Positions 1-3,000 of a DNA stretch of 5,219 nt are shown here, piece by piece. The position numbers are program-made. Position 1 is the stretch's first letter, and each line of letters begins with the position of its first letter. The stretch is from the IMG/VR virus record IMGVR_UViG_2660238346_000010. One strand, 5' to 3'. Origin of the DNA: a virus (lineage: Duplodnaviria; Heunggongvirae; Uroviricota; Caudoviricetes).

Positions 1-3000
1 AGCGACGGTGATGTTTCCTACAACGTAGGTGTGAACTTCGAGTTTTAATTGCTGAAGGTGACATGAAGTATGACGGCAGGCGCAGGACTCTGGTCTGCCG
101 TTTTTCATGGGGCATAAAAAACAGGAAGGTGCTGCGATGAAGGTGATTCTGGCTACCAGGAATCGCTATCTGGAGTACGGTCTGCAGGCGTTACTGAAGG
201 AACACAGTGTGATACTGGCGAGGGAGTTTTTCATGCCGGAGAACCGCCGTTATATCCCGGACTTTGACGAATCCTGGCTGATAATCAGTGATGGCCTGCT
301 GGGCAGGCTGATGCGGTGTATGTTCCAGGGGCGTCATTTTCTGCAACTGGATGCGGAGTTGCTCCGTGATGGTGAGCAGATAAGTGATGCCATACACAAC
401 GGCGTCTGGACGTATAACAGTGCTGCCCGACCGCTGACGATGTCAGAGATGGTGGTGATGTTCGGTTATGTCTACCGCCAGTCGAGACCCTGTCGCCTTG
501 CCAGTGAAATGGGTATCCACACGAAGACGGTGAATACCTTTCTGTATACGGGAATGGCGAAAAACGGGCTGTATGGTGTGAGCGTCAGACGGCTTGTTGG
601 TGCCTGATGGCGGTCCTGCCGGATGCGCAGAATCTTCTGATAGTTCAGAAGGTGCAGATGATGAATAAAGAGAGATGCCGGACAATCGGAAGAAAACGTT
701 ACACCACAGGCGCAATGTGCTTCATGCTGTTTGTGTGGCTTGGTGGTGTGCTGGCTCTTGTTGCTACAGCTGCGGTGGTAATGCAGTAAAAAAAGGGGAG
801 CAACATGCTCCCCGACCAGAAGAAAGACGTTTGATAACAATTAGTGAGTTGTTACGTCTTGTCCAGAATATCATAGCAACACTCTGTTGCAGTGATACCG
901 ATCGCGATTTTAGCGAATTCCATCATAAATCCCCTGATTTTTAAGCCTGAAGCAGTCAAAGGAATTTCTATGCCCTATATCGATATCACCACGATGCGTG
1001 GGATGATGCCGCGCGTTGTGACATCCATGCTGCCCGAGCATTCCGCTGTACTGGCGGAGGACTGCCATTTCCGGTTTGGTGTTATTACACCAGAACGTCA
1101 GATATCCGGGGTTGAGAAAACATTCACAATTAAGCCAAAAACAATTTTTCATTACCGTGACGATTTCTGGTTTGCATGGCCGGATGTGGTGGATGTGATC
1201 CGCAGTCCGATCGCTCAGGACCCCCACGGGCGTATTTACTACACTGACGGGCGTTTTCCTAAAGTGACGGATGCGACCATTGCCACAAAAGGGGACGGGA
1301 ATCACCCGACATCATCGTATCGTCTTGGGATCCCCGCGCCGACGACAGCTCCTGTCTGTACTGTCCAGCAGGGCGGTGATGTTTCTGACGATAACCCGAA
1401 TGATGATGAAACCCGGTTTTATACGGAAACCTTTGTCTCAGATTATGGTGAAGAAGGTCCGCCAGGTCCGGCGTCTCTGGAGGTAACACTCCGTACTCCG
1501 GGAACTGCGGTACAACTGACGCTGGCTCCGGTGCCATTGCAGAATGCCAGTATTAAACGTCGTCGTATTTATCGTTCTGCCTCAGGGGGAGGAGAAGCCG
1601 ATTTTTTACTCGTGGCTGAACTGGATGCATCCGTGCTCAGTTACACGGATAAAATACCGGCGAAAAATCTTGGACCTTCGCTGGCGACATGGGATTACCT
1701 GCCGCCGCCGGAGAATATGACAGGCCTTTGCCTGATGGCGAATGGTATTGCCGCCGGATTTGCCGGTAATGAAGTGATGTTTTCGGAAGCGTATCTGCCG
1801 TATGCATGGCCGGAAGTGAATCGTCACACGACGGCAGAAGATATTGTAGCTATCTGTCCGCTCGGAACATCACTGGTGGTGGCGACAAAGGGTGAGCCTT
1901 ATCTGTTCAGTGGTGTATCGCCTTCCACAATTTCTGGCTCCAGAATTCCTTCAATGCAGGCGTGTCTGAGCAGGCGGAGTATGGTCGCGATGGAGGGCTT
2001 TGTGCTGTATGCAGGAACAAATGGCCTGGTGTCTGTTGATGCAAACGGTAATGCAGCTCTGGCGACGGAGCAGATTATTTCACCGGAACAGTGGCAGAGT
2101 CAGTTTAATCCGGCCTCCATTGTGGCTTATCCCTGGCGTGGTGAATACATTGCCTGTTACACGAAACCGGATGGTAAGCAGGATGTGTTTGTCTTCAACC
2201 CGGCAGGTATGGATATCCGCTACCTCAGTACACCTTTTGACTGCGCATGTGTTGACCTGGTTAACGATGTTATGCGGGTGGTATCAGGACAAAATATGTC
2301 TGCGATCGCCGGAGGGAGTTTGCCGTCGACAATCAGATGGCATTCAAAGGTATTTTCCCTTCCGGAAAGAACCTCTTTCTCCTGTCTCAGGGTGAAGTCT
2401 CCGACGCCAGAGCGGGTGGGAATTACTGTGCTGGCAGATGATGTTCCGGTGATTCACCTTGCACCTGGAAGCTTTTCGGGAAGCGTTGTGAGATTACCTG
2501 CTGCAACCGGGCAAAACTGGCAGATACTGGTTTCCGGTTTTGGTCAGGTTGAACGTATTACACTCAGTACATCGATGTCGGAGCTGCCGGTATGACAAAA
2601 AAACCGTGGCGCGCAGGAAAGGATTTATCTGCTGTTGTGGAAAATATGGAGATAGGGACAGGACAACGTGGCGATGGTCGTCATGCTTTTGTAACCCGTG
2701 AAGAACTGGTCGGTCTGAAGCTGGCCCGTCGCCGGACTTCAGGTGGTGCCGCATATGCCCTTAATCCGGGGATTGAGATGGACAGCTCTGTAATGGTCGT
2801 TGATTTCCCATCGAAACCTCAGAATTTTAAGGCGACAGGGGGATTTGGCTCGGTACTGCTTGAATGGGATATGCCGAATTATCGCGGTCATTCACTGACT
2901 GAAATCTGGCGGGGTACGGAGGATGACCTTGCTGATGCCGTGCTGGTTGCCACGACGCCGGGGCAGGTCTACGGCGATCCGGTTGATCCGGGATGGTCGG

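Follow-up and report, generated by a model that had tools for sequence, protein, structure and literature searches.

The stretch of DNA analysed here (the window, 5,219 nucleotides) was an eibD prophage segment of the ECOR-9 type on the 933W-like short-tailed Stx-phage backbone of E. coli, and the locus was 100% identical to AF151675 (P-EibD) and also to complete E. coli prophages organised like 933W. Every credible gene in the window was on the + strand, as the first-pass annotation had stated. The small membrane-protein gene orf-60D (658-789, + strand) ran up to the site under study, and the leader (910-969, + strand) of an L0124-like tail gene followed further to the right; this leader also held a TATGAT on the minus strand (927 to 922). 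The local annotation is corrected at two points, as the true start of the L0124-like gene was ATG 970 (the PGAP start) and orf-60D was probably a 43-aa form read from ATG 658. Residues 18-60 of ORF-60D were covered by phrog_9340, and its C-terminal hydrophobic segment was conserved at the protein level in other alleles. L0124 homologues were 92% identical, yet their upstream regions were non-homologous to one another, and what lay between the tail fibre gene and L0124 varied from phage to phage. This interval is a variable, dispensable moron slot; in Sp5, the only essential genes reported around it were ECs1228, ECs1232, and ECs1233 (PMC5155283).

The stop codon of orf-60D adjoined an intrinsic terminator on the minus strand, the U-run of which overlapped the TAA (787-789). 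Read as 5'-GGGGAGCA-UGU-UGCUCCCC-UUUUUUU, the terminator was composed of a hairpin (795-813) with an 8-bp stem, six pairs of which were G-C (795-802 with 806-813), a 3-nt loop (803-805), and a U7 tail (794 to 788, A7 on the + strand). A 7-bp GC-rich stem followed by U7 had been proposed here; the place, the strand, and the U7 were right, but the stem has eight pairs. The folding energy was -15.4 kcal/mol, compared with -5.4 ± 2.0 kcal/mol for shuffled controls (z = -4.9), and none of 200 shuffles equalled it. The site was also ranked first in the terminator scan, which agreed with the claim that it was the strongest terminator-like structure in the window. Strict criteria (a stem of 7 or more perfect pairs with 5 or more G-C, and 6 or more T in 7) were also applied to 1000 dinucleotide shuffles of the window in full, and no such terminator turned up on either strand in any of them. 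Both hallmarks of an intrinsic terminator, a stable GC-rich hairpin and a U-run directly 3' of the stem, were present at 788-813.

The hairpin was found in all allele classes, with 97% of stem cells paired across 14 distinct alleles. One stem pair was changed on both sides, from A:U to G:C in the aligned D allele and from A:U to U:A in the remnant allele read directly. An A-run of 5-7 on the + strand preceded the hairpin in every allele class, while a T-run followed it in none; the + strand after the hairpin read GACCAGAAGAAAG here and CAAACCGAAAG in 933W. Because no + strand T-run followed the hairpin (GACCAGAAGAAAG), the site was unidirectional, and the earlier suggestion of a bidirectional terminator with a weaker + strand function was not borne out in any allele. 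Judged by its sequence, the site at 788-813 is a genuine, strong, minus-strand-only intrinsic terminator. An identical hairpin occurred in 8 unrelated genomes with T-runs on both sides; exact-hairpin matches in unrelated MAGs were considered as homologues and rejected, being convergent terminators. A full-text literature search for the hairpin sequence, covering 8 million papers, yielded no match, and the literature on L0124/ECs1231-type genes, Eib, and O104 sRNAs held nothing about the present spacer.

Ahead of the terminator, a minus-strand RNA would carry a pyrimidine-rich linker (814-823, …CGUCUUUCUUCUGGUC; polypurine on the + strand), which was identical in the A, B, remnant, D, and E alleles and U-rich in the 933W allele too. 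The linker was preceded by an imperfect palindrome (824-860), the 5' hairpin of the minus-strand 3' UTR homologue described below, with outer arms AAGACGT (824-830) and ACGTCTT (854-860) and inner arms TAACAA (835-840) and TTGTTA (849-854). The first-pass annotation had recognized this palindrome and placed it about 12 bp away; it lay 10 nt from the terminator stem. Its fold gave z = -3.0 to -3.5 on either strand, and its loop and inner arm (UAACAACUCACUAAUUGUUAUCAA) formed the best-conserved block among type-1 alleles. The palindrome was not retained in divergent alleles, however; its helices were 71-87% paired, with departures that were almost all unpaired cells. Changes on both sides were absent from helices 1 and 3 and affected one pair of helix 2, in 2 sequences, so that no covariation support for 824-860 was obtained across the alleles.

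A terminator facing the minus strand had appeared puzzling, as no minus-strand gene was present for it to terminate. This held within the window, where no same-strand gene lay upstream of the site, but not in its relatives. In remnants of E. coli prophages and in contigs from gut metagenomes, this terminator, together with the ~96 nt preceding it, stood directly after the stop codon of a minus-strand gene of the YkgJ family (CxxCxxCC). The ykgJ-like ORF, of 110-115 aa, was found in loci L144, L151, and L153, in L154 and L155, and in L046, L149, and L160; it matched Pfam PF03692 (E 1.9e-12) and was annotated as YkgJ family. About 107 genomes contained the full ykgJ-like unit, strains 2012EL-2448 and CP55_Sichuan being examples with the gene, and about 350 contained the block by itself. 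Its stop codon was located about 96 nt before the homologous hairpin, which was the sole terminator-like site downstream of the ykgJ-like gene (L144, L046). By blastn, window positions 769-909 matched L144 at 76%, as far as the stop codon of the ykgJ-like gene. The ykgJ-bearing loci shared no homology with the window beyond ~909, the position of that stop codon, and the coding sequence was absent from the window. In other phage contigs, a C-terminal fragment of the ykgJ-like gene remained about 100 nt upstream of L0124, which indicated that the gene once occupied the slot next to L0124. Together, blastn, the junction alignment, and the gene maps delimited a block (788-909, minus strand) homologous to the 3' UTR and terminator of the ykgJ-like gene. 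Positions 788 to ~909, which take in the terminator and some 120 nt on its right, are thus probably an orphaned 3' end left by a moron gene that ran convergently on the minus strand.

The related prophage cassettes contain a 115-aa YkgJ-family gene that points towards eib, orf-156, and orf-60, with a 3' UTR of ~96 nt and then the Rho-independent terminator at its end. By releasing RNA polymerase at the hairpin and U-tract, the terminator would prevent antisense minus-strand transcription into the + strand genes of these cassettes. The ykgJ-like coding sequence would then have been removed in the P-EibD lineage, and also in the Stx2-86/O104:H4 and 933W/Sp5 types, through a breakpoint within a few bases of its stop codon. 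Such a deletion would have brought the 3' UTR and terminator, both left intact, up against the leader of L0124, an essential tail gene. We infer that the deletion is the derived state in the window and that the site would still stop any minus-strand transcription entering it. The proposal that it insulates against antisense read-through is retained as, in essence, an ancestral role: in the relatives the terminator would stop transcription of the convergent gene before orf-60D, orf-156D, and eib. The complete order of orf-60, opposite-strand ykgJ-like gene, and L0124 was found in 0 INPHARED phage records at ≥80% cover, and for that reason the ancestral order is a composite of prophage remnants, metagenome contigs, and gene fragments. 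Because the breakpoint coincides so closely with the stop codon of the ykgJ-like gene, the 3' block could alternatively be an independent unit that merely neighbours the ykgJ-like gene. Between the window and Stx2-86, the intergenic block differed by ~3% and the adjacent L0124 by 13%; this low divergence could reflect selection on the block rather than a neutral relic, or recent recombination.

Terminators of convergent moron genes in lambdoid prophages offer a close comparison. They share with the present site a GC-rich hairpin and U-run at the edge of a dispensable late-operon insert, and in the relatives the present site likewise ends a separately transcribed accessory gene. The difference in the window is that the gene served is missing and the site faces the whole late operon. 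The present site is also purely unidirectional, even though the + strand genes that converge on it lack their own terminators, as indicated by their stop codons directly adjoining the A-run.

Although the minus-strand terminator is probably for the most part an ordinary relic, a small regulatory RNA could still be made from the block. The block may be a working 3' UTR-type Hfq-binding sRNA gene that has outlived its parent gene and ends at the U7, a reading that we regard as the leading alternative though clearly the less probable one. It is compatible with the origin of the block as the 3' end of the ykgJ-like gene. A minus-strand small RNA starting within ~860-930 is possible, given two overlapping extended -10-like elements at 865-878 (TGcTATGAT, 878 to 870, and TGaTATTCT, 873 to 865). 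With an ad hoc sigma-70 weight matrix, TGcTATGAT ranked 7th of 10,366 positions on both strands and was the best minus-strand score between 815 and 1150; a standard consensus promoter scan returned nothing at 878-865. The RNA might start from this extended -10 at 878-865, giving ~70-80 nt, or from TATGAT at 927-922, giving ~130 nt. A start inside the 542-aa gene, as had been suggested, was not supported by the weight matrix, which found no promoter-like minus-strand site at 970-1150. A YATTCT block lay 48-51 nt upstream of the stem in each of the five allele classes and was the only -10-region element common to all of them, and this fixed distance also favours an sRNA.

The layout of the block argues for the same reading. 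The U-rich tract (…CGUCUUUCUUCUGGUC), terminator hairpin, and U7 follow the order of the Hfq-binding module (U-rich tract, hairpin, and U-tail) described by Ishikawa 2012 and Otaka 2011, as these are cited in a passage of PMC4104026. A terminator hairpin with at least 6 U after a U-rich single-stranded tract, the mark of an Hfq-dependent sRNA, was present; the fold of 786-866 gave z = -5.2, and the block was more conserved than the flanking coding DNA. In cis, such an RNA could act as an antisense to + strand transcripts that read through the interval from orf-60D to L0124; in trans, it could act by way of its conserved UAACAACUCACU loop.

Several results weighed against an sRNA. None of the 63 orphan Hfq-CRAC peaks of Sakai, the EcOnc sites, fell in the homologous Sp5 spacer (~1,287,460-1,287,755), although the body of the Sp5 allele differs and is without TGcTATGAT. 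Rfam gave 0 matches at E up to 1 over the whole window on both strands, and the 5' hairpin was without covariation support. Because all ykgJ-less alleles share one common junction, retention of the block represents one event and not repeated selection. A convincing target was also lacking: a trans-target search against translation-initiation regions in the window found no energy beyond that of shuffles, and a 9-nt match between the loop and the beginning of the 205-aa gene was rejected as a target because it did not co-vary with the allele. Among known prophage sRNAs, the probe and seed sequences of PasA-D had no match in the block, and HnrS and EcOnc10-12 were considered and rejected, as they are located in other prophages.

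The 3' UTR-derived, Hfq-dependent sRNAs include those with their own promoter (MicL, DapZ) and those processed from the parent mRNA (CpxQ, SroC). The present block resembles them in its long conserved 3' UTR, its U-rich tract, and its terminator with a long U tail; a further point of resemblance, ~50 nt ahead of the stem, is an internal -10-like site or an RN|WUU-like AUUCU block. It differs in that the parent coding sequence is deleted, which is not known to have been described for these examples, and in being a predicted RNA.

Precedents with the same layout were found in prophages. PasB of EPEC E2348/69 is an 83-nt Hfq-dependent prophage sRNA, antisense between tail genes, with a U7 terminator and a 3' end separated by 6 nt from the upstream gene's stop codon, and it was validated by Northern blot and RIL-seq (PMC8550237; bioRxiv 10.64898/2026.05.13.724894). 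The candidate RNA here would similarly be an antisense RNA of ~80 nt in a tail-gene spacer, with its 3' end near the upstream stop and a U7, whereas PasB belongs to another, long-tailed phage type and is situated between gpI and gpJ. Local alignment of PasB with the block yielded a marginal shared AACAACUC (shuffle p 0.02-0.04), and the PasB probe sequence was absent. AsxR and AgvB are convergent "anti-sRNAs" of 51-60 nt at EHEC prophage moron sites for which Hfq binding and function were shown (Tree 2014, PMC4104026). Like the present block, they are small units facing the late operon at a moron edge, with a conserved 3' part and an allele-variable 5' part; they lie downstream of pR'/stx, however, and the RNA of the present block is a prediction. 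No sequence similarity to AsxR or AgvB was detected, and blastn found the block in 89 of 5426 genomes and in no Sakai sRNA locus. More tentatively still, the 3' UTR block may be an autonomous, exchangeable Hfq-type sRNA gene of Eib and Stx phages that outlived the ykgJ-like gene and kept a conserved terminator module. If so, the gene would have at least two alternative bodies, the type-1 body with UAACAACUCACU and the 933W/Sp5 body.

It is unlikely that the hairpin acts instead on the + strand, where it could stabilise the 3' end of the message from orf-156D and orf-60D, provide a processing site in it, or terminate transcription weakly. The hairpin would be equally stable in + strand RNA (-15.4 kcal/mol), it begins 6 nt after the orf-60D stop, and the stop codon of a + strand gene adjoins the A-run in three different upstream contexts. 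The constant placement of 5-7 A on the 5' side, with a T-run never on the 3' side, is nevertheless an asymmetry that indicates the minus strand, and the block still follows the ykgJ-like gene where the + strand neighbour is another gene (E allele). The expectation that this 180-bp region must also hold the tail-gene promoter was not supported either, as the best + strand score at 790-969 was poor and late-gene transcription in 933W-type phages comes from the Q-antiterminated pR' (Sy 2020, PMC7547250).

A type I toxin-antitoxin system, with orf-60D as the toxin and the convergent RNA as the antitoxin acting antisense to it, on the model of par (fst/RNA II) or txpA/ratA, was considered very improbable. 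ORF-60D is small and tail-anchored, with a basic N-terminus and a hydrophobic C-terminus, and is conserved as phrog_9340, and the terminator of the convergent RNA-like unit does overlap the orf-60D stop codon. That overlap is limited to the stop codon, though, and the Stx2-86/O104 alleles keep the RNA block despite loss of the orf-60 N-terminus. The E allele has an unrelated upstream gene, orf-60 is absent in the D allele, and no PADLOC, Pfam, or NCBIfam matches were obtained.

Equally little weight is given to the palindrome at 824-860 as a DNA operator for a regulator-like ORF-156D, with the terminator unrelated to it. The two nested inverted repeats, with arms of 6-7 bp, adjoin ORF-156D, the C-terminus of which was judged by eye to be LuxR-type helix-turn-helix-like. 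The site is single, however, as neither 24 kb of prophage nor the surroundings of eibD and orf-156D contained another copy; its arms are lost in the remnant and D alleles though orf-156 is intact there, and ORF-156D has no Pfam DNA-binding domain even at E 10. Least credible of all was a short minus-strand protein gene (926 to 852, MMEFAKIAIGITATECCYDILDKT) as what the terminator serves: the ORF exists, has a GGGGA Shine-Dalgarno-like sequence 6 nt before its second ATG, and differs among three alleles at a site synonymous in its frame (GGT, GGA, GGC), but that site is a third codon position in the + frame too, the C-terminus and stop position vary by allele (18 aa in 933W), the start codons fall inside the sole upstream -10-like element with no promoter-like site further upstream, and the region is accounted for as the 3' UTR of the ykgJ-like gene.

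The apparent anomaly of a backwards terminator is accounted for in ordinary terms by its probable origin as the 3' end of a lost ykgJ-like gene. Moron slots of prophages are remodelled through deletion and recombination, and the non-coding ends of lost genes can persist in them. A conserved, unannotated block of 120 nt is carried by medically important Stx phages, including 933W/Sp5, the O104:H4 Stx2a phage, and Stx2-86. If the block is expressed, it would be an example of a 3' UTR sRNA surviving the loss of its gene. An sRNA gene would then be unannotated in the Stx2 phages of O157:H7, O104:H4, and O111, and it may regulate host or phage genes in lysogeny.

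The minus-strand terminator reported in the first-pass annotation, with no minus-strand gene for it to terminate, was the top terminator-like site of the whole window (788-813). In minus-strand RNA it reads GGGGAGCA-UGU-UGCUCCCC-U7 (stem, 795-813; tail, 794-788), and the orf-60D stop codon, TAA, shares bases with its U-run. The GC-rich stem and U7 were as first described, except that the stem comprised 8 pairs (6 of them G-C) rather than 7. The hairpin folded at -15.4 kcal/mol compared with -5.4 kcal/mol in shuffled controls (z = -4.9), and a terminator of equal quality appeared in 0 of 1000 dinucleotide shuffles of the window under strict criteria on both strands. 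The imperfect palindrome was present at 824-860 (arms AAGACGT/ACGTCTT and TAACAA/TTGTTA; fold z of about -3 on either strand), separated from the terminator by 10 nt instead of 12. Hairpin energy, rank in the window, shuffle counts and palindrome arms therefore upheld the observation with small corrections.

Window positions 560-1000 matched both GenBank AF151675 (phage P-EibD, E. coli ECOR-9) and complete E. coli chromosomes at 100% identity. There they form part of a 933W-like short-tailed (Sepvirinae) prophage, within its late operon. Gene order in those genomes was terminase, portal, N4-gp56-type capsid, tail fibre, DUF4376 and YadA-like Eib adhesin, followed by orf-156D, orf-60D, the L0124-like gene, the tail-tip L0125-like gene, two small genes, lom/ail and hok. 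The window spans the end of eibD (1-50), the plus-strand eibD terminator (82-98), orf-156D (137-607), orf-60D (607-789), the L0124-like gene (970-2595), the L0125-like gene with its Phage_Tail_Tip domain (2592-3860), two accessory genes (3875-4156 and 4162-4779), and a lom/ail-like gene from 4859 onward. The latter is broken at about 5013 by an IS1-family insertion sequence, of which the window contains the left end (5013-5219; InsA zinc-ribbon domain, E 5.6e-22); in strain G1/2, whose prophage is otherwise identical, this 735-nt gene is intact and followed by hok.

Stx phages share a common backbone with a variable stretch from the tail fibre gene to the tail gene L0124, holding L0122 and L0123 in 933W, orf22, cor and orf24 in Stx2-86, and eibD, orf-156D and orf-60D in P-EibD. 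As ECs1228, ECs1232 and ECs1233 are essential in Sp5, a prophage of strain Sakai (PMC5155283), and the contents between them vary, the stretch represented a moron slot. Comparison of the 260 nt before 76 L0124 homologues from IMG/VR yielded 35 distinct sequences with homology starting only at the ATG, and upstream sequence was unrelated among homologues with 92% protein identity. This indicated that the terminator block (minus strand, 788 to ~909) is one of several alternative modules outside L0124, and that the start of the L0124-like gene is most likely ATG 970 rather than GTG 892, the start annotated in AF125520 and AF151675. In a distant relative (L104, 62% L0124 identity), a different minus-strand gene occupied the slot ~80-190 nt upstream of the L0124 homologue; overlapping plus- and minus-strand terminators lay between that gene and L0124, which would put a terminator in that gene's leader.

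Metagenome and viral contigs were scanned for the linker-plus-stem sequence, and E. coli genomes were searched. These searches yielded further allele classes; in three of them the block has a gene on its right: a remnant class next to yodB/zinT (L046, L047, L149, L160), class D (L144, L151, L153) and class E (L154, L155). Each time, that gene is a 110-115-aa minus-strand ORF of the YkgJ/CxxCxxCC family (PF03692, E 1.9e-12; also annotated as YkgJ family), its stop codon is ~96 nt before the hairpin, and no terminator-like site other than the homologous hairpin lies downstream of it. Left neighbours varied by class (orf-156 and orf-60, orf-156 alone, or an unrelated gene), marking the ykgJ-like gene, 3' UTR and terminator as a constant unit. 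Window positions 769-909 matched class D locus L144 at 76% identity (blastn), ending at the ykgJ-like stop codon. Four phage contigs (L071, L081, L096, L103) retained only codons 82-114 of the ykgJ-like gene, ~100 nt upstream of L0124, which indicated that this slot once held the gene. Identity between the phage gene and the chromosomal core gene ykgJ was ~78% and confined to the coding part; the 3' UTR was restricted to the phage copy. On the simplest reading, the ykgJ-like coding sequence would have been lost from the window lineage, with the 3' UTR and terminator kept complete. We thus consider it likely, from sequence comparison, that a convergent YkgJ-family moron gene was deleted in this lineage, leaving its 3' UTR and Rho-independent terminator orphaned as the feature seen here.

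Several strains have a truncated Eib-type prophage remnant fixed near yodB/zinT on the E. coli chromosome (L046, L047, L160), ordered as tail fibre, DUF4376, YadA-like adhesin, orf-156, a 41-aa orf-60 and an opposite-strand ykgJ-like pseudogene. Many Stx1 phage records hold short ykgJ-like fragments close to their ends.

Across 14 distinct alleles, the terminator helix was paired in 97% of cells, with one pair changed on both sides and variable loops. The palindrome helices were paired in only 71-87% of cells; one pair of helix 2 was changed on both sides (2 sequences), and since departures were nearly all unpaired cells, covariation lent no support. In the 933W allele (L002), the body at 815-909 differed by 40% and the flanks by 0-11%; together with the low pairing, this indicated that the palindrome structure is allele-specific. 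Among type-1 alleles, the palindrome loop and inner arm (UAACAACUCACU.AUUGU.AUCAA) formed the best-conserved sequence. The 933W allele is a sharp mosaic, in which divergence from the window is 0-0.6% in the leader and the first 500 nt of L0124, 40% in the 95-nt 3' UTR body and 11% in the terminator; the stop-codon position and the hairpin mark its breakpoints, so that the body resembles an exchangeable cassette.

An orphan 3' UTR origin is compatible with a second, more doubtful reading, that the block may still make a putative Hfq-type small RNA. Its layout of U-rich tract, hairpin and U7 matches Hfq-type anatomy, segment 786-866 folds with z -5.2, and validated prophage small RNAs share this layout, among them PasB (83 nt, encoded antisense in the gpI-gpJ spacer, with its 3' terminus 6 nt away from the stop of gpI) and convergent small RNAs at moron sites (PMC4104026); sequence similarity to PasB, however, was only marginal. 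With a simple ad hoc sigma-70 weight matrix, TGcTATGAT (878 to 870) ranked 7th of 10,366 positions and was the best minus-strand site within 815-1150; TGaTATTCT (873-865) overlaps it, and TATGAT recurs at 927-922. A YATTCT block, 48-51 nt before the stem in 5/5 allele classes, may serve as either a -10 element or a site of RNase E type. Against this reading, Sakai had no orphan Hfq-CRAC peak at the Sp5 homologue, an allele with a different body, an Rfam scan of the window (E up to 1) gave no match, and a target search against translation-initiation regions in the window returned nothing convincing. Nine hairpin-loop bases (ACAACUCAC in minus-strand RNA, 838-846) are complementary to 4153-4161, where the 205-aa gene beginning at 4162 has its Shine-Dalgarno/start region. 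Loop and start region did not co-vary across phage alleles, and the match is probably chance. Moreover, all alleles without ykgJ share one junction, making retention of the block a single event.

A plus-strand role for the hairpin, including the bidirectional terminator initially proposed, is very unlikely. Past the hairpin the plus strand continues as GACCAGAAGAAAG, which indicated a one-directional terminator, and the asymmetry is conserved, with 5-7 A before the stem in every allele and a T-run after it in none. The identical 24-nt hairpin (AAAAAGGGGAGCAAYATGCTCCCC) occurs in eight unrelated bacterial genomes or MAGs (L006-L010, L012, L013, L033), ~1000x chance expectation and always with T-runs on both sides; these were rejected as homologues, being apparently convergent simple bidirectional terminators. 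Three candidates were discarded: a type I toxin-antitoxin pair with orf-60D (co-occurrence fails), the palindrome as an ORF-156D operator (single site, arms not kept, no DNA-binding domain detected), and a 24-aa minus-strand ORF as the terminator's gene (no promoter, variable end). By sequence, orf-60D is probably a 43-aa protein from ATG 658 (phrog_9340, residues 18-60), with a basic N-terminus and conserved hydrophobic C-terminus; the Stx2-86 type has an in-frame 18-nt deletion and lacks the N-terminus, and in 933W the orf-156 and orf-60 remains are fused. For orf-156D (phrog_6585), permissive thresholds still gave no match in Pfam, NCBIfam or PADLOC, and the regulator label rests only on a by-eye likeness of its C-terminus to LuxR-type helix-turn-helix motifs.

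As the likely orphan of a lost ykgJ-like gene, the terminator is a real but ordinary feature with an informative history.
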